From: Desulfobulbus propionicus DSM 2032
Lineage (GTDB): Bacteria; Desulfobacterota; Desulfobulbia; Desulfobulbales; Desulfobulbaceae
DNA length: 32,000 bases
Direction of reading: 5' to 3'
NCBI RefSeq assembly: GCF_000186885.1
Contig: NC_014972.1
Location: forward strand, 1,140,001-1,172,000
Within the stretch, counting starts at the first letter, position 1. Every line of letters starts with the position of its first letter. A model generated the notes under the pieces. It did not search any database. It was not told where the DNA came from and worked only from the letters and a program-made list of their open reading frames with translations. Of this stretch, positions 3,385 to 30,197 are shown piece after piece. Position numbers and translations under genes: made by a program.

Positions 3385-3467
3385 TAAATCATTTCGTGTT
3401 GTCGATGGAAAGTGGACAGAAATGCGCAACATCCTTGTTCGATCCAAACCGAGAAAAGGAGGTGACC

Positions 3468-6595: not shown

Positions 6596-6817
6596 TTGAT
6601 ACCTCCTGTTTTGGATGATAATGGAAAAAGGATGACAGTGACCTGTGCTGCCGGAGTGGGGGCAGGGGAGCGGTCGCTGCCACCGGAGGGGGGGAGCGAG
6701 TGGGCACCCAGCGGGACCGGAGAGCAGCGTTTCGGGGGCGGTCATGGCCCAGGGTATGCGCCGGGGTGAGCGCCCGAGAGCGGGGCGACTCGGGGGGTAC
6801 TGGAGGGGGGGCTGGAA

Positions 6818-6832
6818 GTGGGAAAAGTGGGG
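6818..6832. repeat. inverted partial copy of the island box (GTGGGAAAAGTGGGG)
   Basis: Its reverse complement, CCCCACTTTTCCCAC, matches CCCACTTTTCCCAC at 9397-9410. A second partial copy, GAAAAGTGGGGG, lies at 6862-6873. Confidence 0.5.
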
Positions 6833-6869
6833 AAATTGCCCCAGCTCCCCTGGCTCCAATAGAAAAGTG

Positions 6870-6910
6870 GGGGAGGGTGCCCCATACCGCTTCACAACAC
6901 CACCCTCCCC
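6870..6910 (-). terminator. strong hairpin downstream of the primase-helicase gene (terminator-like)
   Basis: GGGGAGGGTG (6870-6879) and CACCCTCCCC (6901-6910) form a perfect 10-bp stem with a 21-nt loop. On the minus strand it is followed by CACTTTTCT. The T-run is short, so function is uncertain. Confidence 0.4.
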
Positions 6911-6914
6911 AGCT

Positions 6915-6937
6915 TGAAAAATCCACTTTATCCACTA
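6915..6937. repeat. island box copy X: TGAAAAATCCACTTTATCCACTA
   Basis: 20 of 23 positions are identical to copy Y at 9390-9412. It lies just 3' of the primase-helicase stop on the minus strand. Confidence 0.6.
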
Positions 6938-6952
6938 CTCTTGCGAGTGGCG

Positions 6953-8599
6953 TTACTGCTCGATAGATGTGACCTTGGGAACCGGCTTAAAAGCTACACC
7001 TCGAAAGATCTCGTAGCCGTCGAGAGAAGTGTGTGTGACACCGAGGCCAATGTTATGCGACAGGAGTTCTTTGACCCGGCCTTTTGAAAAAGGATGGCGC
7101 CCATTATCCTTGCACCATTCCTTGTATGCTGCGTAGAATTCTGCACGTCGAACCTTGTGTTCGTCACCCCGGATGCACTCTTCGTGGATGAATTCTAAGA
7201 GAGAATTAGCGGTGAGGCGCCATTTCTCCATCAGTCGATCATGAGCCTTCGAATTTGAGAACTTGCCGTTCTCTAAAAGCCGTTTAGCGCCTTCCAGTGC
7301 CCAGTGCGCAATACCAGAGAGCTCTTTCTGGATGATGCGATCGGCAATGCCTGGATCGATCGGCAACCCTGTACGTAAGCGACTATTGGGAAACTCAATG
7401 ATCAGCCAACGGCAAAAAAAAGCCTCACTGTGATCGTTGGTGGTGATGAGGTGGTTCGACATAAATAAATGAGCCGCCTCGTTTTTAAAAGTGAAAGGCC
7501 GTTGGCCTGGATGTCGTCCGGCAACCAAGTCTCCACCGGTGACCGTTTTGAACTCGGCAGACGGAATGGGCTTGGAATCTGGCAACTCACCAACCGAATT
7601 AAGCCGCTTGCCTGCCAATGAGGCCAGATAGTATTCGCCGTTCCATTTGAAGGGCGACACCGCTGAAACGAACTCCCCTGGAATCAGATTGGTTATGATT
7701 CTCTCCATGGTACCCTTTCCAGCGCGGCCGAATGGATCATAGAACAAAATAGCCTTCTGAAATTGCGCCATAAGGCCGAGAATGATGGCTCCAAAAATCT
7801 CCTGAAGGAGAGTCACTTGTTGTTCTTCGTCGCCCGGTTCACTGGATTTGAAAGTATCATGCAGAAAAATGTCAAATAGAGGTGTTTTCTGCTGCTGCGG
7901 AGTAACATCGACCATCACACGCTGCCGATGTGGGGCGGTTAGAGCTTCAACACATATCTGGTGATCTTTGAGATGGTGGAAGCCGTTGGCACAGGCCAAC
8001 CCAACCGGTACATTCGTAAAGAATGTATCGTCCGTGGTGATCATGATCAGGTGATTGGCGATCCCACAGTAGTCCGTACTCCTGGTGCAGTTCTCCTTAC
8101 CGTCATATACTTCGGCGATATGTCGGGTGAGTGTCTCGAACGGGAATTTGATCCAGATGGTTGTCTCTGAATCGAGTACAAAGAGACTGCCCTGATATGC
8201 TACCGGTCGATTACCATCGACAGTCAGTCTATCCGTCATGTCGGTGGCATAACCGTGATGGGTCTGGGCAAGGTCCTCGTTCTTGGTGGCAGTTGCTTTG
8301 ATGGCCTTATCAAGGCTGACTACGGAGATATCCTTGTTGGCCTTTAACTCAGCACGGATACGAGCAAACTCTGCCGGATCATGCTTGTTGATGAAAGCAA
8401 GAGTTTCGACAGCTTCTGGTTCAAAAGGAGCTCCGCAATCGTTTGCCGCCCTTTCGACAAGACGTTTTGCTTCTTCCTTGGCGTGAGTCAATTTGCATTG
8501 ATCGCTTTCCTGATCAATGAGCTGCAGGGTGGTTCCCATTTCACTGTCAGGTGATGCAGCGGTCGAAAGCTTAAGTTCCTGATTTTCTTTTTGTTGCAT
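6953..8599 (-). CDS. P4/D5-family primase-helicase C-terminal-type protein (SF3 NTPase)
   Basis: 548 aa. Walker A is FGRAGKGT. The block LNSVGELPDS...FKTVTGGDLVAGRH...FMSNHLITTNDHSEAFFCRWLIIEFPN has the layout of the phage/plasmid primase P4-family C-terminal domain. No clear TOPRIM or AEP motif was seen in the N-terminal 230 aa. Confidence 0.8.
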   Translation of the reverse strand: MQQKENQELKLSTAASPDSEMGTTLQLIDQESDQCKLTHAKEEAKRLVERAANDCGAPFEPEAVETLAFINKHDPAEFARIRAELKANKDISVVSLDKAIKATATKNEDLAQTHHGYATDMTDRLTVDGNRPVAYQGSLFVLDSETTIWIKFPFETLTRHIAEVYDGKENCTRSTDYCGIANHLIMITTDDTFFTNVPVGLACANGFHHLKDHQICVEALTAPHRQRVMVDVTPQQQKTPLFDIFLHDTFKSSEPGDEEQQVTLLQEIFGAIILGLMAQFQKAILFYDPFGRAGKGTMERIITNLIPGEFVSAVSPFKWNGEYYLASLAGKRLNSVGELPDSKPIPSAEFKTVTGGDLVAGRHPGQRPFTFKNEAAHLFMSNHLITTNDHSEAFFCRWLIIEFPNSRLRTGLPIDPGIADRIIQKELSGIAHWALEGAKRLLENGKFSNSKAHDRLMEKWRLTANSLLEFIHEECIRGDEHKVRRAEFYAAYKEWCKDNGRHPFSKGRVKELLSHNIGLGVTHTSLDGYEIFRGVAFKPVPKVTSIEQ

Positions 8600-8727
8600 A
8601 GTTGATTTCTCATCATAAGAAGTTCCCCGGTAGTACTGCTGTTAATCTGAGCCGTTGTCATGATGACCTCGACCGGTTCCGGTAAACACTCCGGAACTCG
8701 TGCCCCTTGGCTTACGAATTCTCGACT

Positions 8728-8743
8728 GACGCATAAATATGCG
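8728..8743. promoter_or_regulatory. operator-like inverted repeat upstream of the primase-helicase gene
   Basis: ACGCATA-AA-TATGCGT has 7-bp perfect arms and lies about 130 nt upstream of the start at 8599. The hairpin GTTCCGG-N8-CCGGAAC at 8675-8696 lies in the same leader. Confidence 0.3.
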
Positions 8744-8844
8744 TAAATGTGATTTTGTTATTTCTTGTTACGGTTTTCTTTCTTTTTTGATCACCTCCTT
8801 GAAAGTGTGAAACTTGCATTTTTGTGAGCAGCCCGTCCCCCGTC

Positions 8845-8867
8845 CTGAAAATCCACTTTGACTGTGG
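8845..8867. repeat. island box copy Z: TGAAAATCCACTTTGACTGTGGA
   Basis: It shares TGAAAA(A)TCCACTTT with copies X and Y, then diverges. Confidence 0.45.
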
Positions 8868-8873
8868 AAGGCG

Positions 8874-8928
8874 CGTTAGCTATTAGCTAACAGAAACCTT
8901 CCAAGTCCAACTTGCTGTTGGACTTGGA
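8874..8928. repeat. two adjacent perfect palindromes
   Basis: GTTAGCTA-T-TAGCTAAC occupies 8874-8890. TTCCAAGTCCAAC-TTGCT-GTTGGACTTGGAA occupies 8898-8928 (13-bp arms). No U-tract lies on either side. They directly abut a very AT-rich stretch at about 8935-9165. Confidence 0.6.
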
Positions 8929-9389
8929 AACCGATCATTTGCAGAATTATGCTAAAATTGCAAGCAAGTCAACTGTAATTTTTTAGAAATTAAAAAATTA
9001 AAGACTTAATGAATAAAAGATGTATAAACATTAGTAAATAGAATTCCTTGTTAAAGCGGATTGAATAGGTAGTGAAAATTTAATGAAGTTATATGTCTTA
9101 AACCTTATGTTTTGTTGATGCCTATTTGAGGCACTTTCGCTTAATGTATTTTCTATGCTGAAGTAAAGGTGCTTTACCTTGAATATTTTTCTCCAAGGAT
9201 AAATACCCCTACGTGAAGGTGAAATGGTAAGGTATCTCACGTTATCCTTATGCGGCAGAGCCAAAGCGATAAGCGGTAGAGCCTTTCGCTCATGAGAGAG
9301 CCGACAAGATTGATTTTTAGTTGTTAGCCTCCTCGGATCGATAGGGGGAGGAAAGGGGGCGCAATTTTTTCGGTAGCACTCCACCCCCT

Positions 9390-9412
9390 CTGAAAAACCC
9401 ACTTTTCCCACT
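9390..9412. repeat. island box copy Y: TGAAAAACCCACTTTTCCCACTA
   Basis: It lies just 3' (minus strand) of the stop of the 58-aa ORF at 9458. As with copy X, G-rich and C-rich arms sit beside it (AGGGGGAGGAAAGGGGG ... CCACCCCCTC). Confidence 0.6.
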
Positions 9413-9457
9413 ATTCGAGTAGGCGGGGCGGCGTCTTGATGCGTATCTCCTCGGAAA

Positions 9458-9634
9458 CTATAAAAATTTCCAGTAGAAGTACACGGCGATACCAATGGTC
9501 GCTAAAACCATGACCGGTATGGGGTACAGGAAAGCCAGGACAGTGATGCAGATAATCCCGATGCCTTGGGTTGAACGAAAGAACATGCTCAAGACGGCAG
9601 CGGTAATCAGGGCGCAGGTCAGTGAAAGGATCAT
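9458..9634 (-). CDS. small hydrophobic membrane protein (58 aa), not in the ORF track
   Basis: The ATG at 9634 overlaps the upstream TGA as ATGA, with GGAG 8 nt upstream. Translation is MILSLTCALITAAVLSMFFRSTQGIGIICITVLAFLYPIPVMVLATIGIAVYFYWKFL, giving 2-3 hydrophobic segments. It falls below the 60-aa track cutoff. Confidence 0.55.
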   Translation of the reverse strand: MILSLTCALITAAVLSMFFRSTQGIGIICITVLAFLYPIPVMVLATIGIAVYFYWKFL

Positions 9635-9981
9635 TTGAGCATCTCCTGTATGAAGGAACTTGGATCACAGCAGAGGTAGCTGTGCTTATCAATCAACTGA
9701 ACCAGGCCTTCGTTCAGGAGTGCGGCCAATAGAAATCCACCGGTATTGGCTGACTTTCCCTTGAAGATTGCTTGGAGCAAATCCGAGGAGATAGGCTTGT
9801 TATCTTCGACGCCCAGCCGCTCCAAGGTGACCCACTCTTTGCAAAAGAAACCACCATTCGAATTCCCATGGAGCTGGAGATAGATCACTTCTTCCCGCCT
9901 TCCAACGTGGTAGGTCAATGAGGTCTTGCCGGAGAGGGAAGGGCAATGACCTATCTTGATTATCTTGATAACTTCACTCAT
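9631..9981 (-). CDS. hypothetical protein (116 aa), middle gene of the coupled operon
   Basis: ATGA overlaps at both ends. Composition is plausible (MSEVIKIIKIGHCPSLSGKTSLTYHVGRREEVIYLQLHGNSNGGFF...). No family was recognised. Confidence 0.65.
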   Translation of the reverse strand: MSEVIKIIKIGHCPSLSGKTSLTYHVGRREEVIYLQLHGNSNGGFFCKEWVTLERLGVEDNKPISSDLLQAIFKGKSANTGGFLLAALLNEGLVQLIDKHSYLCCDPSSFIQEMLK

Positions 9982-10229
9982 GATTGAATCTCCCTGCTGA
10001 GTTCCCAGGCATCCAGCCCCATATCGATATAGTCGCGTTCATCCAGGTGGTGCTCGATGGCTGCTTTGACTTCCTCCATGGCGAGTTGGATGTCTTCCGG
10101 TGTGAGATAGAGGGCATCCGGTCCGAGCCGCTGGACGATTGCTTTGAGAACGGATTCGGAGGTGAAACTGTGAAGTGCGTCTTGGGGGCTGATTTGAGAG
10201 AGTTGGGTAATGATTTCTTGGTGTGTCAT
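9978..10229 (-). CDS. hypothetical acidic protein (83 aa), first gene of the coupled operon
   Basis: RBS TAGGAGCCCATT lies before the ATG at 10229, and an ATGA overlap links it to the next gene. No family was recognised. Confidence 0.65.
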   Translation of the reverse strand: MTHQEIITQLSQISPQDALHSFTSESVLKAIVQRLGPDALYLTPEDIQLAMEEVKAAIEHHLDERDYIDMGLDAWELSREIQS

Positions 10230-10907
10230 AATGGGCTCCTATTGGCTGGAAATAAAAAAGCCCCATGGCTGAGTAGCCGCAGGGCGATAACGGGACATGA
10301 AAGCTTGTTTAGGCTTTCATATAAGATGGCGGATTAGGCGAAATAGGAGCAGGTTCGTTATGGGATGCTGTTAGATTAGCCCTAGGGGAGGTAAATAAAA
10401 TTCTTCTATGTGTTGATTTTATGAGTCTGTATATACGTGGTTTTGATCGATGAATAGGTATATTTACCGGGGTTGATTTTTTGGTGTTGTAGGGGTAGAT
10501 GAAAATAAGATTCTATCCATCAAATCATGTGGTTCTGTGCGATAGAAGATTAGCACCGTTCCATATTGCGTTTTGCCTTATCAACGGCCTTTTATTTGGT
10601 GATGCTAAGTATAGCCGCATTTTATTGGAGTCTTTTTATGAAATAGGTGCCGTTGGATCCAATTTGGTGAAGTCAATATTCATTGGAACTATCTTGACCA
10701 GTTAAAAAACACCGCTTCTTCAATCTTGATTACCCTATCACTTTTTATCTTTTTTTGACTTTGTCTTATTTATTAATCTAACTACGAGAATTGTTTCAAT
10801 ATTGTGAAATTACATAAACATTTAACAAGTGCGACGGCTGAGTATCTCATATAAAAATTGGTCCAACCATATTGATATGTGTCCAAATATAAAAAGGAAT
10901 CACCCCT

Positions 10908-12671
10908 ATGTCACAACTCAGATTTCATGTTGACACGCGTTTAGCTTTTCTGCTGAGTGAGAATTACAGATCAACTGAAAATGCAATCAAAGAGCTTGTT
11001 GACAACGCTTGGGACGCAGATGCTGAAAGAGTAAAAGTGTTCTTACCTGAACCGCTAACAGTCAATCCTGAAATTATCGTTGAAGATGATGGAACAGGTA
11101 TGATCGAAGAGGAATTACGTCGAGAATATCTCTTTATTGCCAGTGATCGGCGGCAGAGGCGTGGAGAAAGAACTGCGTCAAAAAAGCGAAAAGTTAAAGG
11201 GAGAAAGGGTATTGGTAAATTTGCTGGTCTAATGACAGCATCAACCATGAAACTAGAAACTTGCGCACGAGGTATATGTTCTTCATTTTCCGTTACCAGA
11301 GATGAATTCAAGAAATTTGATGATATCGAGGGGATGCCCATTAATTTGTTTACAAAAAAGGTTTCTCAAGAAAAACATGGCACAAGAATAATATTATCAA
11401 ACTTGAACCAAGACCTAACCTTTCCAAATCCAACCAAATTAAAACAATTACTCATTCAAGAATACGGCAGGGAAATTGATTTCAATGTTGAAGTCAATGG
11501 GAAGGAGCTCGGTATTGACGATGTTCAAGGCAATTTTACTGAAATAAAAAAGGAAATTCCAAAAGTTGGAGAAGTTAATCTTCAGTTTACAATTAGCAAT
11601 CAGAAAAGAAAATTAAGACAGCCTGGTATAGCTATTAGAGTAGGTGGTAAAATAGTTGGAAATCCTAGCTTTTTTGGCTTGGAAAAGGTGGACGATTTTC
11701 CACCGAAGCTATTGGATAAACTATACGGTGAAGTTGAGGCTGATGGTCTTGCGGACCATGTTACTGCTGACTGGGGCGCATTAATCGAAAATAGTGAACT
11801 GCTTAAAAAGGTAGAAGATGTTTTTCAACCTATTCTGAAAGAAAAATTTAAAGAAGAATATGGCAGAGAAATTAATCTAGCTCAGGCAAGACTCAAAAAA
11901 AAGATAAATGAGAGGCTTGCATTACTACCTGAACACAAACGAGAATACGCAGACAAAGCTATTAAAAAAATCCTCCAAAGGTACTATGGAGAGCCAGAAT
12001 CAAAATTGGAGCCTATTGTTAATGTTGTCTTGGATTCACTGGAACGATCTGATTATAGGATAGTGATTGAGCATCTATATGAGGCAAGTAATTCTGATAT
12101 TGCCACATTGGCAGAAGTGCTTTGTGAGTTTGGATTAATTGAATTAGCAATTATGGCAGAACAGACAAATGGCCGTTTGACTTTCCTTGATTATCTTGAG
12201 CAAATCTGTATAAATCCAACAACATTAGAAGAACTTCCCCATAAAGCTATTGAGAATAATCTATGGGTAATTGGACATGAATTCACTCTATTCAGTTCGA
12301 ATAAAACACTTAAACGTCAAGTTGAGGAATATTTAGAGAAAGATTACAAAAGCAACATTGGAGAAAAGCGACCTGATTTGCTTCTCAATGAAAACATTCT
12401 TCAAGAATACCTTCTTATTGAATTTAAACGCCCAAGTCACAACCTGATATATAAAGATTATCAACAAGCCACTCGCTACAGAAATGACTTTGGGAAATAT
12501 ACAGACAAGGAAATCAAGGTGGTAATTATTGGCGGAAAAAGGGGGGGCGATCTACCACCAAAGAAGCACAGAGAGCCCTCAGTCGAAATACTTGTGTACC
12601 CTGAGCTTATTTCTGCGGCGCGTAAGCGTCTAGACTGGTTGTTGAAAGAGCTGAGAAATAGAACAAATTGA
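10908..12671 (+). CDS. GHKL (Bergerat-fold) ATPase fused to a C-terminal PD-(D/E)xK nuclease resembling the Shedu/DUF4263 core
   Basis: 587 aa. N-box is ELVDNAWDAD (aa 29-38), G1 is EDDGTGM (59-65), G2 is GRKGIGKFAG (98-107). The C-terminus reads FLDYLEQI...NNLWVIGHEF...RPD490LLL-x11-LLIE505FK507RP...YQQATRY. RBS AAAGGAAT lies before the ATG. Confidence 0.8.
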   Translation: MSQLRFHVDTRLAFLLSENYRSTENAIKELVDNAWDADAERVKVFLPEPLTVNPEIIVEDDGTGMIEEELRREYLFIASDRRQRRGERTASKKRKVKGRKGIGKFAGLMTASTMKLETCARGICSSFSVTRDEFKKFDDIEGMPINLFTKKVSQEKHGTRIILSNLNQDLTFPNPTKLKQLLIQEYGREIDFNVEVNGKELGIDDVQGNFTEIKKEIPKVGEVNLQFTISNQKRKLRQPGIAIRVGGKIVGNPSFFGLEKVDDFPPKLLDKLYGEVEADGLADHVTADWGALIENSELLKKVEDVFQPILKEKFKEEYGREINLAQARLKKKINERLALLPEHKREYADKAIKKILQRYYGEPESKLEPIVNVVLDSLERSDYRIVIEHLYEASNSDIATLAEVLCEFGLIELAIMAEQTNGRLTFLDYLEQICINPTTLEELPHKAIENNLWVIGHEFTLFSSNKTLKRQVEEYLEKDYKSNIGEKRPDLLLNENILQEYLLIEFKRPSHNLIYKDYQQATRYRNDFGKYTDKEIKVVIIGGKRGGDLPPKKHREPSVEILVYPELISAARKRLDWLLKELRNRTN

Positions 12672-12880
12672 AATCACATATCAAGTCAATAAACCTGACC
12701 GGAAATAGCGGCGTTCTTAAATGGTGGGCAATACGTCGGCCGGCAAATTATTTCACCGTTACGAGTCAATATTGCTCCTGTTTATTTTAACCTGAGTCGT
12801 TTCCTCTAATTTGAGGAAAATTTGGATCATAAACAATAGAAAGTATTTTTCAGTAAAACCTACGATCATTGGAGGCAATC

Positions 12881-13375
12881 ATGACAATTTCATCTTCTGA
12901 AGCTCAGCTTGAATTGACGCTCTTGAATGCAAAAACGAACGGTTTTGATGAGCACGATGCATTTACATCGTTTGTCAATGCTGGCTTGCCAATGGAAATA
13001 ATTTTAAGGTTAAAAGAGCTGTGGGGGGCAACCAAAGTTCTGGGGGGTAAGGTTATTCGTATTGGCAAGATAATAGTCATAGAGATCATTAAATTCATTA
13101 ATGAAAATCCAAATTTGGCCACAGGGGTTGCCGTGGGGGCCGCAGTCGGGTCATTGATCAGTCTTGTGCCTTATCTGGGTCCGTTGCTAGCGCCGCTTTC
13201 AACTGCTATTGGAGCTTTGTTAGGGGGGCTGGCAGGAGCAAGGCTTGATCGCACTAATAAAAATGCACAAGGAATCGTTGGAGTTGCTCAAGATGTCATT
13301 GTTGTAGCTCGCAAATTTTTTGAATTGCTTGCATCTATTTTTATGGCTCTAAAAGAAAAATTGAATGATGAATAA
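12881..13375 (+). CDS. glycine-zipper membrane protein 1 (164 aa)
   Basis: The start was moved to the ATG at 12881, behind GGAGG at 12871-12875; the track uses TTG at 12869. The central segment is NLATGVAVGAAVGSLISLVPYLGPLLAPLSTAIGALLGGLAGA (GxxxG/AxxxG repeats). Confidence 0.7.
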   Translation: MTISSSEAQLELTLLNAKTNGFDEHDAFTSFVNAGLPMEIILRLKELWGATKVLGGKVIRIGKIIVIEIIKFINENPNLATGVAVGAAVGSLISLVPYLGPLLAPLSTAIGALLGGLAGARLDRTNKNAQGIVGVAQDVIVVARKFFELLASIFMALKEKLNDE

Positions 13376-13386
13376 AAGATGCGAGT

Positions 13387-13944
13387 ATGAAAAAACCCAC
13401 GATTGATGAATATATTCAAGCCTTAGAAAAGATGAAGGAAAGCCCAGGTGACCGGATTGGGATATTGGGAGAATTAGGAGTGACAGGGTTAGGGGTTACA
13501 GCAGGAGTGGCACTTTCTGGTACTGTTGCAGGAGCCGCTGGAGCAGCTACCCTTGCTGGATCGACAACATTGGCATCTATTTTAGGCGGGATATTTGTAA
13601 CTACAACTCCTATTGGATGGGTGGTTGGTGCTGCATTCACAGGAGGAGTGTTGGCCTATACAGCAAGTCAGATGATACGAAGCGGAGAAAAATGTGATAT
13701 CTATAAAACAGAAACGATTAAAGAGCTTGAGAATAGAGTTAAAATTTTGCGAAACGAGGCTGAATATTCTTCGCTGCATGAAGAAAAGATGAAAAAAATA
13801 ATAACGAGTTTGCAATTTTTGGTAGCTAATACGATTGTGACTCAAGAAAAATCAACTGAATTGTTGGCAGCGATTGAATCGGGGATTTTGAGTATTGATG
13901 ATGCTTTTGATTTGGTCGAGGAATTGTTGAAAGAGAACAGATAA
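13387..13944 (+). CDS. glycine-zipper membrane protein 2 (185 aa) with a C-terminal helical or coiled region
   Basis: The hydrophobic stretch is GILGELGVTGLGVTAGVALSGTVAGAAGAATLAGSTTLASILGGIFVTTTPIGWVVGAAFTGGVLAY, followed by a charged helical tail. It lies 11 nt after the previous gene. Confidence 0.7.
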   Translation: MKKPTIDEYIQALEKMKESPGDRIGILGELGVTGLGVTAGVALSGTVAGAAGAATLAGSTTLASILGGIFVTTTPIGWVVGAAFTGGVLAYTASQMIRSGEKCDIYKTETIKELENRVKILRNEAEYSSLHEEKMKKIITSLQFLVANTIVTQEKSTELLAAIESGILSIDDAFDLVEELLKENR

Positions 13945-13962
13945 TCAATTTTTAATTTAATG

Positions 13963-13992
13963 AGGCGCCTGACCACAACGGATCAAGCGCCT
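13963..13992 (-). terminator. hairpin terminator after the island-supplied hisHF 3' end (possibly bidirectional)
   Basis: The minus-strand RNA AGGCGCUUGAUC-CGUUGU-GGUCAGGCGCCU forms a 12-bp stem with two G-U pairs, followed by CAUUAAAUUAAAAAUU. On the plus strand the stem has two C-A mismatches. Confidence 0.5.
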
Positions 13993-14019
13993 TTCTAAGT
14001 CAATGATTTGGGGAAGAAC

Positions 14020-15594
14020 TTACACCGGGCGAATCTCCACCTTGCCGGTCAGGAACTCTTTCACCGCACCGATCGGTACTTCCTTCCGGTGAAAGATGCC
14101 CGCTGCCAGGGCCGCTTCGGCGTTGGTCTTGGTAAACACCTCCAGGAAATGTTCCGCACATCCCGCACCGCTGGAGGCAATCACCGGGATGGTCACCGCC
14201 GCACGAACCGCATTGATCAGTTCAATGTCAAAGCCGGAGTTGGTGCCGTCCTTGTCGATACAGTTCAGGAGAATCTCGCCAGCTCCTAGCTGCTCACAGA
14301 CATGAGCCAGGGTGACCGCATCCACAGGGCGTCCTTCCCGGCCACCCTTGACGGTGCACTGGTACCAGCAGAAGCGCTCGCCATTGGGGCCGGGAAAACC
14401 AGTCTCGATCACCCGGTGTGGCACTGCCTCGGGGCTGTCAACATAGACCCGGCGCGGATCGATCGAGATCACCACCGCCTGGTTGCCATACACCCGGGCA
14501 ATCTGCTCGATGGAACTCAGGCCCGTGGCCTGGCCGGTTTTGAGCACCTGCTCGACGATCTCCACCGCGTCGGAACCGATGGACACCTTGTCCGCGCCGG
14601 CGCGGAAGTAGCGCGAGGCCACCTCCAGGGCGCTGTAGAAGCGGCCGTCGCGGTCGGTGAAGTCGCGGATGCCGCCGCCGATGGTTAGGGGAACAAAGAC
14701 GTTTTTCGAGGTCTGCTCCAGCACGTCGAGCATGGGCATGTCCTGGAGCGGAAAGTCGCGGAACCCGGTGATGTTGAGGAAGGTGATCTCGTCCGCGCCC
14801 TGCTCGTAGTAGTCGCCGGCCAGTTCCACCGGCTTGCCCAGATTGCGCACCGTGCCCTCGTCGCGGACATCGTACTGATCGCCCTTGGTCACCACCAGAT
14901 CACCCCGGTCGTTGGCGCGCACATCCAGGCAGGCGATGATGCGCTTGGCCAGGACCGTGGTCTGCGGGCAGGCGTTGGGACGCACGGCTTCGCGGTTGCC
15001 GGCGAGGAAATTCTCCAACAGCCTGAGGCCGGCGCGGCCGCTCTTTTCCGGATGGAACTGGGTGGCCACCATGGCCCCGCGCTGGATAGCGCTGACAAAT
15101 TCGTAGCCGTAGTCGGTGGTGGTGAGGATGTCGTCGCGCGAGGCCGGAGCCACATGAAAGGAGTGGACGAAATAGAACTTTTCATTGCCGGCCAGGCCCT
15201 GGAACAGCGGCGAGGCCTGGTGCATCTTCAGCCCGTTCCAGCCGATGTGCGGGATGGCGAGATCGCAGGTGAACCGCTGCACCCGGCCGGGCAGAATACC
15301 GAGCCCCGGTTCGTCCGGCGCCTCCTCGCTCGACTCGAACAGGGCCTGGAGGGCGACGCAGATGCCGAAAAAGGGTTTGCCCGAGTGCAGATAGCGGACC
15401 AGCGGTTCGCGCAGCTGTTTGTCGCGCAGGGTGTGCATCAGGGCGCCAAAGTTGCCCACGCCGGGAAAGACGAGCCGCTCGGCACGGTCGATGTCCGCGC
15501 CGCTGTTGACCAGCATCACGGTTTCGCCGAGCCGTTCGATGGCATTGATGACCGAGCGGACATTGCCGGCGCCGTAATCAAGAAGAGTAATCAT
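14020..15594 (-). CDS. hisHF: fused imidazole glycerol phosphate synthase (HisH glutaminase plus HisF cyclase in one 524-aa chain)
   Basis: The N-terminal part [15 protein letters not shown]...GICVALQ...QFHPEKS is a class I GATase (HisH). The C-terminal part [11 protein letters not shown]...IGGGIR...[13 protein letters not shown]...ASSGAG is HisF. Confidence 0.9.
14345..14371. repeat. 27-bp att core (right junction, inside hisHF)
   Basis: Identical to 5203-5229. Confidence 0.7.
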
Positions 15595-21209: not shown

Positions 21210-22541
21210 TTATCGTTTTTTCTCGATGCCCAATCGTTCCATCTTGTAGCGCAGCACCCGCTCGCTGATGCCCAGGGACTCGGCGGCATGGGTCTGGACC
21301 CAGTTGTGGCGCTCCAGGGCTTCGATGAGCATCTGCCGTTCCACCTCGGCCAGGCGGTCGTTGAGATCGCCCTCGCTTGTCGCCCCGCGATAATCCCGGA
21401 TCTCGGGCGGCAGGTCACGCAGGCCGATGTTGGTTGAGCGGGCCAGGGTCACGGTCCGTTGCAGGACATGTTCCAGCTCCCGGATATTGCCGGGGAACGG
21501 ATACTTGCTCAGTTGCGCGAGGGCCTGGTCGTCGAACACGGCCGGGCTTTGGTATTTGTGGAGGAAAAAGCGGATCAGCTCAGGAATTTCCTCCTTGCGC
21601 CGCCGCAGGGGTGGGATGTCGAGGGCGATGACGTTGAGCCGGAAATAGAGATCCTCGCGAAAGCCGCCCGCTGCCACCATCTGCTTGAGGTCGCGATTGG
21701 TGGCCGCCAGGATGCGGACATCCACCGGCAGCAGCTGCTCGCCGCCCACCCGACTGAAGGTTTTTTCCTGCAGGGTCCGCAGCAGCTTCGCCTGCACCGC
21801 CAGGGGCAGCTCGCCGACCTCGTCGAGCAGCAGGGTTCCGCCGTGGGCTTGTTCAACCACCCCACGCCGCCGGTTGGCCGCGCCGGTGAAGGCGCCTTTT
21901 TCGTGGCCGAACAGTTCGGACTCAAACAACCCTTCGGGCACGGCCGCGCAGTTGAGGGGGATGAACGGGCCTTCCTTGCGCGGGCTGAGCAGGTGGATGA
22001 GCCGGGCGATGAGTTCCTTACCGGTGCCGGTTTCACCCTGGATCAGCACGGTCCAGGGGCTGGGCGCGGCCCGCATCACCAGGGAAAGGACCTGACGCAT
22101 GGCCGGGCTGGCGGCGATCATCCGCACCGGCAGGGCCTCGGTGTCAATGGTTTCCTCGACCCGGGCGACATCATCGGCGATAAAGAGCTGTTCCTCAATG
22201 ACGCGGATCTTGGCGAGCAGCGCCTCAAGATCGATCGGCTTTTCCAGGAAATCGTCCGCGCCCAGCCGCATCACCCGCACCGCGGTGTCCACCGCCCCGT
22301 AGGCAGTGATCATGATCACCCTGGCCAGCGGGCTCTGTGCCTTGATCCGGGCCAACACCTCGTCGCCGTTCATGTCCGGCATGCGGTGATCGAGTAGCAC
22401 CAAGTCGATCGGCTGGCGCATGAACTGGCTCAGGGCCTCGGTGCCGTTAGCCGCCTCGTGCACGGTATAGCCCTGCTTCTTGAGAAAGCCGCTGAGCATG
22501 TCCCGCTGCAACGGCTCGTCATCGACGATCAGAATACGCAT
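21210..22541 (-). CDS. sigma-54-dependent response regulator (NtrC/ZraR family)
   Basis: REC domain (MRILIVDDE...LLDHRMPDMNG), AAA+ domain GETGTGKE with ESELFGHEKGAFTGA, and a C-terminal Fis-type HTH. Confidence 0.9.
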   Translation of the reverse strand: MRILIVDDEPLQRDMLSGFLKKQGYTVHEAANGTEALSQFMRQPIDLVLLDHRMPDMNGDEVLARIKAQSPLARVIMITAYGAVDTAVRVMRLGADDFLEKPIDLEALLAKIRVIEEQLFIADDVARVEETIDTEALPVRMIAASPAMRQVLSLVMRAAPSPWTVLIQGETGTGKELIARLIHLLSPRKEGPFIPLNCAAVPEGLFESELFGHEKGAFTGAANRRRGVVEQAHGGTLLLDEVGELPLAVQAKLLRTLQEKTFSRVGGEQLLPVDVRILAATNRDLKQMVAAGGFREDLYFRLNVIALDIPPLRRRKEEIPELIRFFLHKYQSPAVFDDQALAQLSKYPFPGNIRELEHVLQRTVTLARSTNIGLRDLPPEIRDYRGATSEGDLNDRLAEVERQMLIEALERHNWVQTHAAESLGISERVLRYKMERLGIEKKR

Positions 22542-24147
22542 CCGCGTCCTCCTCTTTTTTCCCCGCCTCCATGACTCTATGCGCCGATCGGGAGCCGGTT
22601 CGCGGCAGGGTGACCGACACGGTCAGTTGTTCCTGCTCGGGATCGGCTACGATCCGCAGCCCGCCGCCATGCGCCTCGGCGATTCGCCGGCACAAGGCCA
22701 GTCCAAGACCGGTACCCCGAATCTTGGTGGTGAAATAAGGTTCGCCCAGGCGGGCGATGTCCTCGGTGGATAACCGGCAGCCGCCGTTGGTCAGGGCCAG
22801 GGTGAGGGTGTGGGGCGCCGGATACAGGCCGATGCGGACAAATCCTCCCTTGGGCTGGGCCTCGACGCTGTTGTTGAGCAGGTTTTCCAGCAGCTCGGCC
22901 AGCAGGTCGGGATCGGCGTCGACCATGTCTCCGGCGGCATCCGGCAGGATCAGGTCAATCCCCTGGTCCGTGCAGCGCTGCCGGTACAGGGGCACGATGC
23001 GTCGAAGCAGGGCCAGCGGATCCACGGGCTGCGGATGCGGCACCAGGGTGCGGGTGAACCGCTGCAATTCGGAGATGATGCCGCTGGCACGGCGTACCGC
23101 CTCGTTCATGGCCGCGATCAGCTGGCGGTGTTCGCCATCGAGATGGTCCGATTCCAGTTGGAGCCGCTGCAACCCCATGCTGATGGCATTGAGCGGATTG
23201 CGGACTTCATGGGCAATGGTGGCCGTGGCCCTCCCCAGGGCCGCCGCCTCGTGCTCCTTGGCCAGCTCCCGCTCGAAGGCACGGCTGCGGGCAAGGTCGG
23301 CCTGTTGGTGGCGGTACAGCAGCCAGGAGAAAAAAAGGCCAAGGAGCAGCAGCAGGACGCTGAAGAGCAAAAATTGATGCCGTAGCTGCCGCAGCCGATT
23401 GACATGGTTGGCCGCATCGAGGCCCACCGCCAGGGTGCCCATGGGCGTGGCCAGCCGTGCCTCCGCCGTTTGCCTGCCTTCCGAGGTCAGCAGCCGGATC
23501 GGATCCGCGTTGACGGGAGGCGCCGTGTGTTCCAGGCGGACAAAATGGATGCCGGGCAAACGGGAGAGGTTGGCCAGCAGCATCGGCAGGGCGGTCTTGT
23601 CGCGCAGCTCGATCATGGCGTGGGCATCGAGACCGACGCGGATGCAGTCGATCTCTGGTTCGGCGGCCGGATAGAGCAGCAGGGCGGTCTGCCGGCTCGG
23701 GTCATAATGGAGCTGATCAACACTCAGGTCACAGCGTTGTGGTCCCGACAGCCATTCAGCCGGGCCGCCGACCACCGTTTTGTCCTTGCGGACCAGGGCG
23801 ATGCCGAGCAGGCCGGTTTCCCGGGCGAGCGCGGTCAGTTCCTCGGGCTGCAACGGGTCGATGGTGTTGAGATATTCAACAAACCGGGCCTTGTCGCGGA
23901 GAAAGGAGGTGGTCACCGCGTCGATGGTGGCCTGGGCCTGGGCGGCGTTGGCCAGGTGCTCCTCGATGATCGCCGCCATCATCTGCGACCTTCCCAGGGT
24001 GTTGCGGTGGAGGTCACGGTCGATGGCCACCATCTGCCAGAAAAAGGCCCCCAGTACCAAGGTGATGAGCAGGCCGAATCCGATCAGGTTCATGGCCCAG
24101 GAGGGCAGGGGGAGGCGGTCTCCCGATCGGTTCACCGGCTTCGCCAT
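22519..24147 (-). CDS. sensor histidine kinase (ZraS-like; two TM segments flanking a periplasmic domain)
   Basis: H-box HEVRNPLNAI, N-box LLNNSVEA, G-box GTGLGLALC. The start was chosen at the ATG at 24147 (MAKPVNRS...); an alternative start is 24096. It overlaps the regulator start by 23 nt. Confidence 0.85.
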   Translation of the reverse strand: MAKPVNRSGDRLPLPSWAMNLIGFGLLITLVLGAFFWQMVAIDRDLHRNTLGRSQMMAAIIEEHLANAAQAQATIDAVTTSFLRDKARFVEYLNTIDPLQPEELTALARETGLLGIALVRKDKTVVGGPAEWLSGPQRCDLSVDQLHYDPSRQTALLLYPAAEPEIDCIRVGLDAHAMIELRDKTALPMLLANLSRLPGIHFVRLEHTAPPVNADPIRLLTSEGRQTAEARLATPMGTLAVGLDAANHVNRLRQLRHQFLLFSVLLLLLGLFFSWLLYRHQQADLARSRAFERELAKEHEAAALGRATATIAHEVRNPLNAISMGLQRLQLESDHLDGEHRQLIAAMNEAVRRASGIISELQRFTRTLVPHPQPVDPLALLRRIVPLYRQRCTDQGIDLILPDAAGDMVDADPDLLAELLENLLNNSVEAQPKGGFVRIGLYPAPHTLTLALTNGGCRLSTEDIARLGEPYFTTKIRGTGLGLALCRRIAEAHGGGLRIVADPEQEQLTVSVTLPRTGSRSAHRVMEAGKKEEDADAYSDRR

Positions 24148-24473
24148 CGTTCCCCGCCGCGATAGCGCTGTTGGGGACAGGCCTGGCCACGGTGCATGCC
24201 GTGCCCACCGTGGTGGCCCCGGCGGCACAGACCCAAACGGGCGCGAACACCGGTGGGATCCTGGCCATAGCGCTGTTTCAAGACGTGGATATTCTCCTGG
24301 CTTTCGGACGGGTCGGTGCGGGGCGGCGCGTTCCCGGCTTCCTGGGGCGTGACGGCGGTTTGGACGTGCTCGGTGGGGAGGCCATCTGGCTCGGCCGCCT
24401 GGAGGCACGGCGCCAGGCAGACAATCAGAATCAGGAGGAGCAGGATCAGGTGCGTTGGGCGTGGCAGCTTCAT
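24132..24473 (-). CDS. small secreted His-rich protein (113 aa), first gene of the kinase operon
   Basis: The start at 24473 gives the signal-like MKLPRPTHLILLLLILIVCLAPCLQA. The C-terminus reads GLCRRGHHGGHGMHRGQACP. It overlaps the kinase start. The coding call is moderate. Confidence 0.5.
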   Translation of the reverse strand: MKLPRPTHLILLLLILIVCLAPCLQAAEPDGLPTEHVQTAVTPQEAGNAPPRTDPSESQENIHVLKQRYGQDPTGVRARLGLCRRGHHGGHGMHRGQACPQQRYRGGERWRSR

Positions 24474-24775: not shown

Positions 24776-25594
24776 ATGACAGAAGCGTATCAGGATATTG
24801 ATGCGGAACGGCTACGCGCCTACATGGCCAGGCGGCAGGAGAACGAATATCTGCTGGTCGATGTGCGCCAGCCTGACGAGTACGCCAAGGGCCATATCCC
24901 CGGATCCGTGCTTATTCCCCTGGGCGAAGTGTCCGAACGGCTGCGCGAGCTGCCGGTGGACAAGGATATCGTCGTCTACTGCCGCTCCGGCAAGCGGTCC
25001 CGGGCCGCTGCCCTGTTCATCAGTTCACGGCCTTATGTGGCCGGGACGATCTTCAATCTGACCGGCGGCATTCTCGCCTGGGATGGCCATCTGCTGCCCG
25101 CGGTTCCAAGCATCAAGGTCTTTGATCGTGCCGGCGACGATCGGCAGGTCCTGCTGCGGGCCATGGACTTGGAGCGCGGCGCCCAACGGTTTTACACCGC
25201 CCTGCGTCAGCGCTACGGCGCCATTGCCTGGGCGGAGCGCCTGGCCGAACTGGCCGGCGCGGAGGAGGGGCACGCGCGGCTCATCTATGGCCACTGGGCC
25301 GAGGGGCAAAGCGATCCACCCGATTTCGCGACCGTGTATCAGGGGCTGGCCGGCGATATCGTCGAAGGCGGCTATTCCTTCAGCGCCCTGGTGGCCATGC
25401 TGGAAGAACAGCCTCAGCAACCGTGCCGATCCACCCTGGAAATGGCGCTGACCATCGAGTACTCGGCTTACGATCTTTCTCGCAACATGGCGCACCGCTT
25501 TCAGGGGCAGCCGATGGAAGCGGTGTTCAACACCATCGCCGAGGCGGAAAAGGAGCACATGCAGCTGGTGGCGCGGGCCTTGTCCCTCTGTTAG
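24776..25594 (+). CDS. rhodanese domain fused to a ferritin/rubrerythrin-like four-helix-bundle domain
   Basis: The rhodanese active-site loop is CRSGKRS. The C-terminal half has paired E...ExxH-type motifs (DLERGAQ, AEEGHARL, IEYSAYD, AEKEHMQL). Confidence 0.8.
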   Translation: MTEAYQDIDAERLRAYMARRQENEYLLVDVRQPDEYAKGHIPGSVLIPLGEVSERLRELPVDKDIVVYCRSGKRSRAAALFISSRPYVAGTIFNLTGGILAWDGHLLPAVPSIKVFDRAGDDRQVLLRAMDLERGAQRFYTALRQRYGAIAWAERLAELAGAEEGHARLIYGHWAEGQSDPPDFATVYQGLAGDIVEGGYSFSALVAMLEEQPQQPCRSTLEMALTIEYSAYDLSRNMAHRFQGQPMEAVFNTIAEAEKEHMQLVARALSLC

Positions 25595-25764
25595 GGGCGC
25601 TGAAAGATTGCTTGCGCGAATGCTGGGCTAATGGTATATTTTTTCAATAGAATAAGCAGGTTGGTTAAGTAAGGGGTTTTTCCGGGAAGTCATCGGCGGG
25701 GGGAGCTGTCGGCTTACGTCAGGGAAAGCGACGATAATTCTTGAACAGATTCAAGGAGGATTGT

Positions 25765-26427
25765 ATGCAGCACTTTTCGTACAGAAGCACCACCTATCAA
25801 GTCGATGATCAGGGCTTTTTGCTGGAGACCAAATTTTGGGACAGCAATTTTGCCGAAGGGGTGGCCAAGGAATTGAACATCGAAGGGCTGACCAACGAGC
25901 ATTGGGACGCGATCAACTTTCTGCGGGAAGTGTTTGCCTCAACCGGTGCCTGCCCCACCATCTTTGCGGTCTGCAAGGCCATCAACTTGCGGCCACGGGA
26001 GATGAAACAGCTGTTTCCCGCCGGCTATCACCGCGGCCTGTGCCGGATGGCCGGTGTCCATTACCGGATGCACCGTCTGCCGGACAACAGCCACCTGGCG
26101 GAGATGACCACCGATCTCGAAGCCCTGTCCGGGGACAAGCACTATCAGGTGGATGTGCGCGGCTTTTTGATCGATCCTGAGAGCTGGGATCCGCATTACG
26201 CCATGCACCGTGCCATGGAGATGAATATTCCCAACGGTCAGCTGACCGAACCCCATTGGCGGGTGATCAACTATCTCCGGGATGTACATCAGCGGGAACG
26301 ACGTATTCCCACTGTGTACGAGACGTGCGAGAATTGCCAGCTCGATCTCGAGGCACTCGGCGCCTTGTTTCCGGACGGCTATCATCGCGGGGCGGTGAAG
26401 ATCGCTGGCCTGCGCTTTGTCAAATAG
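25765..26427 (+). CDS. tandem double-domain DsrC/TusE-like protein (220 aa), paralog 1
   Basis: The ATG at 25765 follows CAAGGAGGATTGT. Two DsrC-like repeats are present: DDQGFL...LTNEHWDAINFLR...LFPAGYHRGLCRMAG and DVRGFL...LTEPHWRVINYLR...LFPDGYHRGAVKIAGLRFVK. The C-terminal PTGCV arm is missing. Confidence 0.8.
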   Translation: MQHFSYRSTTYQVDDQGFLLETKFWDSNFAEGVAKELNIEGLTNEHWDAINFLREVFASTGACPTIFAVCKAINLRPREMKQLFPAGYHRGLCRMAGVHYRMHRLPDNSHLAEMTTDLEALSGDKHYQVDVRGFLIDPESWDPHYAMHRAMEMNIPNGQLTEPHWRVINYLRDVHQRERRIPTVYETCENCQLDLEALGALFPDGYHRGAVKIAGLRFVK

Positions 26428-26542
26428 AGTTGCATTCATGGCACAGAGACACGTATTGGCCTGACGCGAAAAGCCTAACTAAAAGAGCGGGATGCGGCGC
26501 GACGATGTGCCGATCCCGCCAAGCATGGACAAGGGAGAGCAC

Positions 26543-27205
26543 ATGAAGTCGTTTCATTATAAGGATGCCACCTATGAACTGGACGAGCAGGGGTGCCTGC
26601 TCGACCCCAAGACCTGGACGCCTGAGTTTGCCGAGGGCATGGCGCGCGAGTGCGATATTCCGGTGCTGTCGGGCGAGCACTGGGACGTTATTCGCTATGT
26701 TCGCGACGCCTATGAAAAAACAGGCATCTGCCCCACCATCTTCGCCGCCTGCAAGGCCAGCGGCCTTCGGCCCCAGGAGATGCAGAAACTCTTTCCCACT
26801 GGCTACCATCGCGGCCTATGCAGGGTGGCGGGCGTGCACTACCGGGTCAGTCACATGCCCTACGGAGCCCATCTCCGTGAAAGCATGGCCGATCTGCGCG
26901 CCCTGTCCGCGGACAAGGTCTACTCGACCGATGTGCGCGGTTTTCTTGTCGACCCCGACTCCTGGGACGAGAATTTCGCCATCCACCGGGCTGCGGAGAT
27001 GCGCATTCCCGGCGGCCAGCTGACCGACGAGCATTGGCGGATCATCTACTATTTGCGGGATGTGTACCAGGTGCAGCGCCGGATTCCCAATATCTATGAA
27101 ACCTGCGAGAGCTGCGACCTCGACCTGGACAGCTTCGAACAGCTCTTTCCCGACGGCTATCATCGCGGGGCGCTCAAAATAGCCGGCCTGCGGTTCGTGA
27201 AATAA
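26543..27205 (+). CDS. tandem double-domain DsrC/TusE-like protein (220 aa), paralog 2
   Basis: The ATG at 26543 follows AAGGGAGAGCAC. Architecture and length match paralog 1 (…LFPTGYHRGLCRVAG… …LFPDGYHRGALKIAGLRFVK). Confidence 0.8.
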   Translation: MKSFHYKDATYELDEQGCLLDPKTWTPEFAEGMARECDIPVLSGEHWDVIRYVRDAYEKTGICPTIFAACKASGLRPQEMQKLFPTGYHRGLCRVAGVHYRVSHMPYGAHLRESMADLRALSADKVYSTDVRGFLVDPDSWDENFAIHRAAEMRIPGGQLTDEHWRIIYYLRDVYQVQRRIPNIYETCESCDLDLDSFEQLFPDGYHRGALKIAGLRFVK

Positions 27206-27225
27206 CGTCCGACAGGAGCGAAAGG

Positions 27226-27543
27226 ATGAAAACAACCTTGATGGTGTGCAATGCCGAGCCGGAGGTGGTGTGGAACGCCTTTCGGATGGGCAATCTCATG
27301 CTCGAGCAGATGGATGACGTCACCCTGTTCCTCAACGGGCCGTCGGTGCGGTATGCGGCGATGGACTCCGAGCGCTTTCCCCTGGTGGAACTGGCGAAAA
27401 TATTCACCTTGTCCGAGGGGGTGCTCCTCGCTTGAGGCAAACTCCTTGACCTCCACGGCGTGGAGGCATCGTTCCACCAGCGGGCCAAACAGACCGACCT
27501 CTATCGCTTGATCGTCGAAAGCGACCGATTCATCACCTTTTAA
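27226..27543 (+). CDS. DsrE-like protein with in-frame UGA (predicted selenocysteine at codon 70), 105 aa
   Basis: The tracked ORF stops at the TGA at 27433-27435. The same frame continues as GKLLDLHGVEASFHQRAKQTDLYRLIVESDRFITF to the TAA at 27541-27543, which matches the usual DsrE-family C-terminus. The TGA aligns where homologs carry the ACGxC cysteine. A hairpin lies 14 nt downstream, and selB is about 0.7 kb away. Confidence 0.65.
27446..27469 (+). promoter_or_regulatory. candidate bacterial SECIS hairpin
   Basis: CCTCCAC-GGC-GTGGAGG (27450-27466) is a perfect 7-bp stem, extended by TG/CA with a bulged A. The G-rich apical loop begins 21 nt after the UGA. Confidence 0.5.
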
Positions 27544-27603
27544 GTGCGCCGGTTGTTCCGTCTTTCTTCGGAGCAACCGGTTTTTTTGGGTAGTGAGAGG
27601 AGG

Positions 27604-28269
27604 ATGTTGTACAGCACCATGAATACCCAGCGAGAAGGGGTGATCCTGCTCCATGGCTTGGCCCGTACCCGCCGCTCGATGCGGTCGCTGGCGCTTTTTC
27701 TCGGGCAGCGCGGATACACGGTGGTCAATGCGGGATATCGGTCATGTCGCGAACCCATCGAAACCCTGGCCCAATCGACCATCCCGCCGGCCATTGCCCA
27801 ACTGCGGCGGCAAGGCGTCGCCACCATCCACTGCGTCACCCATTCCATGGGCGGCATCCTGTTGCGTTTTTTTCTTTCGGTTGAACGTGTGCCCGAACTG
27901 GGGCGGGTGGTGATGCTCAGTCCGCCCAATCAGGGGAGCGAGCTGGTGGATTGCTTGTGCCGGTTTGCCTGGTTTCGCCGAGTTTTTGGTCCAGCGGGCT
28001 GTCAGTTGACCACAGGAACCGAGGGCCTGCCCGCTCGACTGGGGCCGGCGGACTTTCCGTTGGGGGTCATCACCGGCAACCGGCCGGCCATCGGTCTCGG
28101 TCAATTTTTTCCCGGTCCGAACGATGGCAAGGTGTCGGTAGCCCGTGCCCAGTTGGCGGGCATGGCGGACTTTCTCGAGGTGGGGTGCGGCCATTCACTG
28201 ATCATGCGCCACCGCCGGGTACAGGAGCAGGTGGCCCATTTCTTGGGTAATGGCCGGTTTGAACGGTAA
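27604..28269 (+). CDS. alpha/beta-fold hydrolase (lipase/esterase-like)
   Basis: The ATG at 27604 follows GAGAGGAGG. The nucleophile elbow is THSMGG, with VILLHGL near the N-terminus. Confidence 0.75.
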   Translation: MLYSTMNTQREGVILLHGLARTRRSMRSLALFLGQRGYTVVNAGYRSCREPIETLAQSTIPPAIAQLRRQGVATIHCVTHSMGGILLRFFLSVERVPELGRVVMLSPPNQGSELVDCLCRFAWFRRVFGPAGCQLTTGTEGLPARLGPADFPLGVITGNRPAIGLGQFFPGPNDGKVSVARAQLAGMADFLEVGCGHSLIMRHRRVQEQVAHFLGNGRFER

Positions 28270-28271
28270 GC

Positions 28272-30197
<1,926 letters not shown>

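Follow-up and report, generated by a model that had tools for sequence, protein, structure and literature searches.

We analysed a 32,000-nucleotide (nt) stretch of the Desulfobulbus propionicus DSM 2032 genome (contig NC_014972.1, positions 1,140,001 to 1,172,000; the whole of this stretch is hereafter called the window) and found that one of its genes, Despr_1041, is on comparative evidence a truncated annotation of a 105-codon gene for a DsrE-like selenoprotein. The in-frame UGA at codon 70, at which the annotated product ends, is very probably recoded as selenocysteine (Sec), a reading that has good computational support from the conservation of the codon and of the frame beyond it, from Cys-containing homologues and from a conserved hairpin 3' of the UGA. 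The DsrE-like selenoprotein family has already been published, and the D. propionicus gene is a mis-annotated further member of it, not a new kind of system.

The frame opens with an ATG at position 27226, meets TGA as codon 70 at 27433-27435 and ends with a TAA at 27541-27543; translation through the TGA adds 35 further in-frame codons (GKLLDLHGVEASFHQRAKQTDLYRLIVESDRFITF). An initial annotation of this DNA, made by a model from the sequence and its open reading frames (ORFs), had described exactly this arrangement and placed each of its elements correctly. A terminator scan reported no terminator-like site between the TGA and the TAA. In a protein search, the 69-amino-acid (aa) product of the shorter frame was identical to Despr_1041, which is annotated as a 'hypothetical protein' and spans 27226-27435 only, so that the expectation that gene callers would mis-annotate the locus was borne out. 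Of the 355 relatives that this search yielded, the best 120 include about 100 that end exactly at residue 69; such 69-residue stumps are often named 'sulfur reduction protein DsrE' in the database, and the few relatives that are full length (105 aa) carry Cys or 'Trp' at position 70.

For comparison at the codon level, one genome per species was scanned; 298 genomes encode a relative, and 80 loci were kept for counting. TGA occupies codon 70 in 80/80 of these loci, which come from species genomes spanning 58-87 % identity, and 75/80 of the genes contain exactly two stops, this TGA and a terminal one at codon 106. In nearly all of the 80 genomes the TGA is followed by some 35 codons of conserved frame, a point that the initial annotation had wanted checked for homologues that stop at this codon, and within the 35-residue tail the amino acids are strongly conserved and synonymous positions vary freely, a pattern of purifying selection that extends over both halves of the gene. 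A second suggested check concerned the residue at the aligned position of full-length homologues, and here too the outcome favours Sec: codon 70 is TGC in three genuine Cys homologues (L001, L002 and L084) and TGT in a fourth (L085), and in an exhaustive profile search that yielded 317 cluster representatives, the full-length proteins of the wider family (about 106 aa) have Cys at position 70 in 93/104 cases. Together with the hairpin described below, these observations uphold the original proposal that the 69-aa ORF is a truncation and that its UGA specifies Sec, and we infer that selenium is incorporated at residue 70.

Three other accounts of the TGA were weighed against these data. If it were a true stop, the gene product would have 69 aa and the next 105 nt would be an untranslated spacer with a fortuitous hairpin. 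All gene callers annotate the locus in this way, most of the best database matches end accordingly, and the energy of the hairpin is ordinary for G+C-rich sequence. This account is nevertheless very improbable, since across 80 species the downstream frame is kept as protein, varies freely at synonymous positions and ends at the same codon, two strands and one helix of the DsrE fold would be missing from a 69-aa product, homologues with a Cys codon are full length, and the terminator is placed after the TAA and not after the TGA. Equally little speaks for read-through without selenium, whether through reassignment of UGA to Trp or Gly or through near-cognate suppression: several database entries do carry Trp at position 70, but in the entry that was checked (P0005, locus L003) the 'Trp' is a TGA translated by the gene caller under another code, the residue found in aligned homologues is Cys and neither Trp nor Gly, a conserved SECIS (selenocysteine insertion sequence) and SelB are both present, and TGA serves as the ordinary stop of 9/21 confident genes in the window, selB among them, which excludes a reassigned code. 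Least credible of all is a pseudogene created by nonsense mutation, or a TGA produced by sequencing error, for although a lone in-frame stop is the commonest pseudogene signature, the same TGA stands at the same codon in all 80 independently assembled species genomes, across the full range of identities, and both gene halves are under purifying selection. We regard termination at the TGA, pseudogene formation, sequencing error and reassignment of the codon as effectively ruled out.

A second in-frame stop was seen in one homologue, from a metagenome-assembled genome of an uncultured deltaproteobacterium (L070, 6208-6267), where TAG replaces the Lys or Gln found elsewhere at codon 85 and His77 is changed to Tyr. 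The gene may be a copy in decay or the result of faulty assembly, or the TAG might conceivably encode pyrrolysine, if the lineage uses that amino acid.

The initial annotation had pointed to a perfect 7-bp hairpin starting 14 nt 3' of the TGA, with a spacing and geometry suitable for a bacterial SECIS, and this hairpin was readily located (CCTCCAC-GGC-GTGGAGG; Table 1). Its loop lies 21 nt from the UGA, and its predicted folding energy is -10.0 kcal/mol. A published model of bacterial SECIS elements prescribes an upper stem of 4-16 bp, an apical loop of 3-9 nt with a G in its first two positions, a distance of 16-37 nt between UGA and loop and a minimum free energy (MFE) of -7.5 kcal/mol or lower (PMC13188914), and the hairpin in the window conforms to every one of these limits; the MFE is -7.5 kcal/mol or lower in 72/80 homologues as well. 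Over the 80 TGA-containing genes 99.1 % of the stem cells are paired, compared with 44-58 % after displacement of the 3' partners by 1-3 columns, and RNAalifold, run on the homologues, independently yielded exactly the same stem. No Rfam family matched anywhere in the window at gathering thresholds, which leaves the putative SECIS outside any curated RNA family. Covariation is clearest at the pair formed by the third base of Leu76 and the first base of codon 80 (pair 21-31), for which 43 distinct sequences have C-G, 32 have U-A and 3 have U-G, with no mismatch and in particular no C-A (Fisher p = 3e-19); a CTC codon is accompanied by GAG (Glu), a CTT codon by AAG (Lys). Because both the C-G and the U-A states occur in the high-identity as well as the low-identity tier of the locus list, this pair appears to have switched state more than once, a judgement drawn from identity tiers and not from a tree. 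Codon usage in the stem points the same way: Val79 is GTG in 80/80 genes (0 bits), whereas the remaining conserved Val codons have a third-position entropy of 1.5-1.9 bits, CAC encodes His77 in 76/79 genes, compared with a 44/33 split of C and T at His84, and the third base of codon 80 is G in all genes. By contrast, the third loop base, which belongs to Gly78, is free (1.8 bits), so that synonymous sites are frozen in the stem and free in the loop.

The Cys-codon relatives show the hairpin in graded states of decay. In the close relative L001 (400-459; TGC, 84 % identical) the stem is intact, in L084 (1272-1589) it is down to 6 bp and -5.9 kcal/mol, and in L085 (3001-3318), which has TGT, it is destroyed, with ACG as codon 80 and an energy of -0.1 kcal/mol. 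Such decay is the relaxation expected once recoding of UGA is no longer needed, and it fits the view that some members of the Sec clade converted from Sec to Cys and left a 'fossil' SECIS behind.

Several observations nevertheless weigh against recoding, or lessen the force of the case for it. The folding energy of the 60 nt 3' of the UGA, taken as a single sequence, is unexceptional against shuffled controls (z = -0.15), so single-sequence folding cannot validate the hairpin, and its support comes from the comparison of homologues. The stem coincides with codons that are themselves strongly conserved (D-L-H-G-V-E/K), and constraint on the protein confounds much of the conservation seen in it; most of the covariation resides in a single pair; moreover, the sequences are phylogenetically related, and the Fisher p-value therefore overstates their independence. 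None of selA, selD and the gene for tRNA-Sec lies within the 32-kb window. Taken with the codon-level evidence, we nonetheless judge it very likely that the UGA is decoded as Sec.

The extended protein is predicted to have the DsrE/YchN alpha/beta fold, in keeping with the DsrE-like identity first assigned to it. Fold models were built on an 84 %-identical Cys homologue (P0001) with a 74-sequence alignment, for which AlphaFold gave a predicted local distance difference test (pLDDT) score of 98.0 and a predicted template modelling (pTM) score of 0.90; residue 70 is at the end of a strand (66-70) and the start of a helix (71-76) in this model. The top Foldseek match in the PDB was Escherichia coli YchN (1jx7), with a template modelling (TM) score of 0.86 and a root-mean-square deviation of 2.6 Å, and the next seven were DsrE/DsrF-family or related structures, including the DsrF subunit of DsrEFH (2hy5_B); the top nine matches (TM 0.72-0.86) consist of eight structures of this kind and one designed protein cage. 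YchN was also the best match when the family profile was searched against PDB sequences (E = 4.6e-9). Finally, hhalign aligned the 74-sequence family profile with E. coli TusD and Allochromatium vinosum DsrE over the full length (probability 88 %, E = 3e-6) and set position 70 opposite Cys78 of both proteins, which we take to be the persulfide-carrying residue of the established Tus and Dsr biochemistry. This alignment, along with the prevalence of Cys at position 70 in the wider family, agrees with the initial claim that the UGA sits at the active-site Cys of the family.

Profile databases give the DsrE assignment less backing, and these results count against it. Pfam DsrE (PF02635) matches the window protein from end to end with E = 0.043, but its 14.4 bits fall below the gathering score of 22.7, and NCBIfam has no model for the read-through protein; as a single sequence, this protein matched nothing in Pfam at E <= 0.01 or in NCBIfam at E <= 10. 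The Pfam model does match 8/12 close relatives at E <= 1, with a best value of 8.5e-5. Shallow alignments had likewise been uninformative: a profile of 12 close homologues found no match among PDB sequences and gave a meaningless hhalign probability of 0.5 % against TusD/DsrE, and an earlier model from 11 close homologues reached a pLDDT of 68 with weak Foldseek matches and was superseded by the one based on 74 sequences. The PDB and hhalign matches were gained only once the exhaustive representative search had added distant Cys homologues. Where the Pfam score falls short, we regard the modelled fold as decisive for placing the protein among DsrE-type proteins.

The active-site motif of the protein departs from the one usually given for the family. 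The UGA had been placed in an A-C-G-x-C loop, and this holds for the first position, at which Sec replaces Cys, but not for the second Cys, the window protein reading A-U-G-K-L. In the wider family the second Cys, at position 73, is present in 87/104 full-length proteins, whereas it is missing from 75/81 genes of the Sec clade, where Leu or Val takes its place; the 81 genes divide into UGKL (73), UGKC (6), UGKV (1) and USKL (1). The labels 'UxxC' and 'A-C-G-x-C' therefore suit the ancestral Cys-containing family and the smaller part of the Sec forms, but not the window protein. As UGKC and UGKL forms occur within one clade, we treated the mismatch with UxxC as a failure of the descriptor and not as grounds for exclusion from the family.

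Based on these features, we propose a mechanism in which the hairpin would act as SECIS and bring SelB-GTP-Sec-tRNA(Sec) to the ribosome, UGA at codon 70 would be recoded as Sec, translation would run for the further 35 codons to the TAA, and transcription would end at the terminator 5 nt beyond. In the folded protein Sec70 would sit at the strand-helix junction, in the place of Cys78 of TusD/DsrE, and its single selenol would most likely act as a nucleophile that takes up sulfane sulfur (or selenium) and passes it on as an Se-S or Se-Se adduct. The likely partners in Desulfobulbus would be the rhodanese and the DsrC-like proteins encoded by the adjacent genes. We infer this carrier chemistry and these partners from alignment and gene context, and suggest tentatively that the Sec clade gave up the ancestral C-G-x-C redox pair and works as a single-selenol carrier, which in Desulfobulbus may take part in a relay from rhodanese through DsrE(Sec) to a DsrC-like protein. 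The frequent loss of the second Cys and the correspondence with Cys78 favour such a carrier over a selenenylsulfide redox couple.

Alternatively, the same Sec gene might encode a selenol/thiol oxidoreductase in which another Cys, such as Cys8 close to where strand 1 ends, takes over from the lost motif Cys as the resolving residue; we consider this less likely, but a serious alternative. This function would suit the C-G-x-C motif that prevails in the wider family, the U-G-K-C motif retained by the Desulfovibrio vulgaris protein and 6/81 clade members, the presence of Cys8 in 66/80 proteins and the listing of the family among thiol-oxidoreductase-like selenoproteins (PMC1794560), and the 'UxxC redox motif' label of the literature implies it. 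However, 13/80 proteins have no Cys at all besides Sec, so that no resolving Cys is universally available, and Sec is aligned with the persulfide-carrier Cys of TusD/DsrE. It also counts against an oxidoreductase that we know of no DsrE-fold protein with a characterised activity of this type.

The single-selenol carrier has difficulties of its own. Both DsrC-like proteins end in ...KIAGLRFVK and lack the C-terminal Cys arm, which in DsrC/TusE accepts sulfur; instead of being acceptors, they may have a regulatory or scaffolding role. In addition, no conserved neighbour was found outside the Desulfobulbus clade, the rhodanese/DsrC-like context being present in only about 20/80 loci; with the context limited to this clade, the neighbourhood lends weak support to a role in sulfur trafficking.

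The features of the locus are collected in Table 1.

Table 1. Coordinates of the selenoprotein gene, its signals and its neighbours, numbered from the first nucleotide of the window.
Feature	Position	Strand	Evidence and remarks
DsrE-like selenoprotein coding sequence, complete (predicted)	27226..27543	+	105 codons + TAA; translation, homology to D. vulgaris member
Shine-Dalgarno-like AGGAG	27214..27218	+	7 nt 5' of ATG; read from sequence
In-frame UGA, probable Sec codon, residue 70	27433..27435	+	conserved TGA, Cys homologues, Cys78 alignment
Putative bacterial SECIS core	27450..27466	+	stem 27450-27456/27460-27466 (7 bp), loop GGC 27457-27459
Strong intrinsic terminator	27548..27581	+	13-bp stem, 8 G-C pairs, then T-run; 5 nt past TAA
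Rhodanese-rubrerythrin fusion	24776..25594	+	Pfam Rhodanese 9e-21, Rubrerythrin 4e-9; active-site loop CRSGKRS; syntenic in 16 loci
DsrC-like paralogue A	25741..26427	+	Pfam DsrC 4.5e-39, two stretches; syntenic in 21 loci
DsrC-like paralogue B	26492..27205	+	Pfam DsrC 2.9e-40, two stretches; TIGR03342 101.8 bits; syntenic in 21 loci; directly 5' of selenoprotein gene
selB	28272..30197	-	TIGR00475 370 bits (cutoff 242) + SelB winged-helix domains; 0.7 kb from selenoprotein gene

The gene string from 24776 to 28269 is filled by the rhodanese-rubrerythrin gene, the two DsrC-like genes (tandem paralogues whose products have two DsrC-like domains each), the selenoprotein gene and a hydrolase gene. 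It contains no second ORF of DsrE/DsrH type, and with no DsrF/DsrH-type partner gene the protein is not a subunit of a DsrEFH/TusBCD complex and resembles stand-alone proteins of the YchN type. About 20 loci of the Desulfobulbus clade keep the order rhodanese-rubrerythrin, DsrC-like (one copy or two in tandem), selenoprotein and alpha/beta-hydrolase, and continue with a convergent selB, an MBL-fold hydrolase gene and an Mrp/NBP35 gene. The window does encode SelB, the Sec-specific elongation factor by which a SECIS is read, as first stated, and selB is syntenic in 17 related loci of this clade; its adjacency is a lineage-specific synteny and not independent evidence for recoding. The rhodanese with its C-terminal rubrerythrin-like domain, an unusual fusion that heads the gene string, is a possible sulfur donor.

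Just upstream of the rhodanese gene, and divergent from it on the minus strand, are genes for a sigma-54-dependent response regulator (21210-22541) and a histidine kinase (22519-24408). A sigma-54 activator recurs near the selenoprotein gene in 15 loci of other clades, in both orientations. The idea of a sigma-54 promoter was dropped, as matches to the consensus in the window are below chance and none lies upstream of the operon.

About 23 kb from the selenoprotein gene, two overlapping half-size genes in tandem (3396-4010 and 4007-4537) encode YeeE/YedE-type ('Sulf_transp') membrane proteins, a split form of a sulfur- or selenium-compound transporter type. The first of them was considered as another read-through gene and rejected, given several upstream in-frame stops and the second half-size gene that follows. 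Elsewhere in the window, a 300-nt direct repeat of 80 % identity (4878-5177 and 14020-14319) copies the 3' end of a hisH/hisF fusion gene (14020-15594, minus strand), and the roughly 9.1 kb between the repeats encode a tyrosine integrase (5414-6895), a D5/primase-like protein (6953-8599) and an HATPase_c_3 protein (10908-12671); the arrangement (4878-15594) has the look of a mobile island that integrated by targeting the hisHF 3' end. At 328-1845 lies a DNA methylase gene (N6_N4_Mtase), and after it, at 1852-2958, a Lys/Asn/Ile-rich ORF of 368 aa that matches nothing in Pfam; the two may be of foreign origin and form a module for restriction-modification or defence.

A relative of this gene is encoded in at least 298 species genomes, and a correction of the annotation would apply to hundreds of them. 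With no NCBIfam model available, the 69-residue mis-annotation will keep being reproduced, and a family model that makes an exception for Sec could be built on the alignment and SECIS presented here. The placement of Sec at the persulfide-carrier position of TusD/DsrE, together with the linkage to rhodanese and DsrC-like genes in Desulfobulbus, turns the chemistry into a concrete hypothesis that can be tested. Were it to hold, the protein would be the first of the DsrE type to traffic sulfur or selenium by means of Sec, and the literature label of 'UxxC oxidoreductase' would be wrong for most members of the family.

DsrE-like selenoproteins had been mentioned in the initial annotation as a product of computational surveys, and the literature supports this. 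The 'DsrE-like' family was described under Pfam02635 with a UxxC motif from two Sargasso Sea sequences and one genome (Zhang, Fomenko and Gladyshev, 2005), a D. vulgaris member followed, with its sequence in supplementary file 4, and the family was placed among thiol-oxidoreductase-like selenoproteins (Zhang et al., 2006; PMC1794560). A 2007 study of Olavius symbionts listed three DsrE-like selenoproteins, one of them in the delta-4 symbiont, and the delta-4 locus in our set (L082) falls in the Sec clade. A 2026 review still gives the family as PF02635 and UxxC, with WP_014524487.1, and lists its function as unknown. We found nothing relevant in the literature on the D. propionicus selenoproteome or on YchN-type selenoproteins.

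In a BLASTP comparison, the window protein and the D. vulgaris DsrE-like selenoprotein aligned along their full length at 46 % identity (E = 2e-35), and the U of the latter fell opposite the window TGA. The two are alike in size (105 and 107 aa) and in the placement of Sec in the same column of a ...FxLSEGVLxA-U-GK... context, and D. propionicus shares with the hosts of the published family an affiliation to the Deltaproteobacteria/Desulfobacterota. They differ in the second motif position, where D. vulgaris keeps U-G-K-C, in line with the published UxxC, and the window protein, like 75/81 clade members, has Leu (or Val). The UxxC motif was drawn from very few sequences, the three of 20 years ago, and the larger sample shows that the second Cys is usually absent.

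Among proteins of known structure, the nearest is YchN (1jx7), an E. coli DsrE-family protein of unknown function, which is a single small domain (about 105-117 aa), as is the window protein, with a C-x-x-C motif of its own at the equivalent strand-helix junction, but which uses Cys instead of Sec, keeps both Cys residues and is 19 % identical to the model. YedF (TIGR03527), compared here by description, also has a C-terminal DsrE-like domain with a C-G-x-C motif and is linked genomically to selenium utilisation (PMC5322559); unlike the window protein, it has an extra N-terminal SirA/TusA-like domain and uses Cys. TusD (E. coli, 2d1p_A) and DsrE (A. vinosum, 2hy5_A), which carry the persulfide in TusBCD and DsrEFH, share with the window protein the fold, the alignment of Cys78 with Sec70 and a C-terminal ...SD(R/K)xxxF that corresponds to ...DRxVxF. 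The window protein is about 25 residues shorter and its similarity to them is remote (17 %), and its operon lacks the DsrF/DsrH (TusC/TusB) partner genes. DsrC/TusE-family proteins are the acceptors in the Tus and Dsr relays, and the selenoprotein gene adjoins genes of that very family, although the proteins encoded next to it are without the acceptor Cys.

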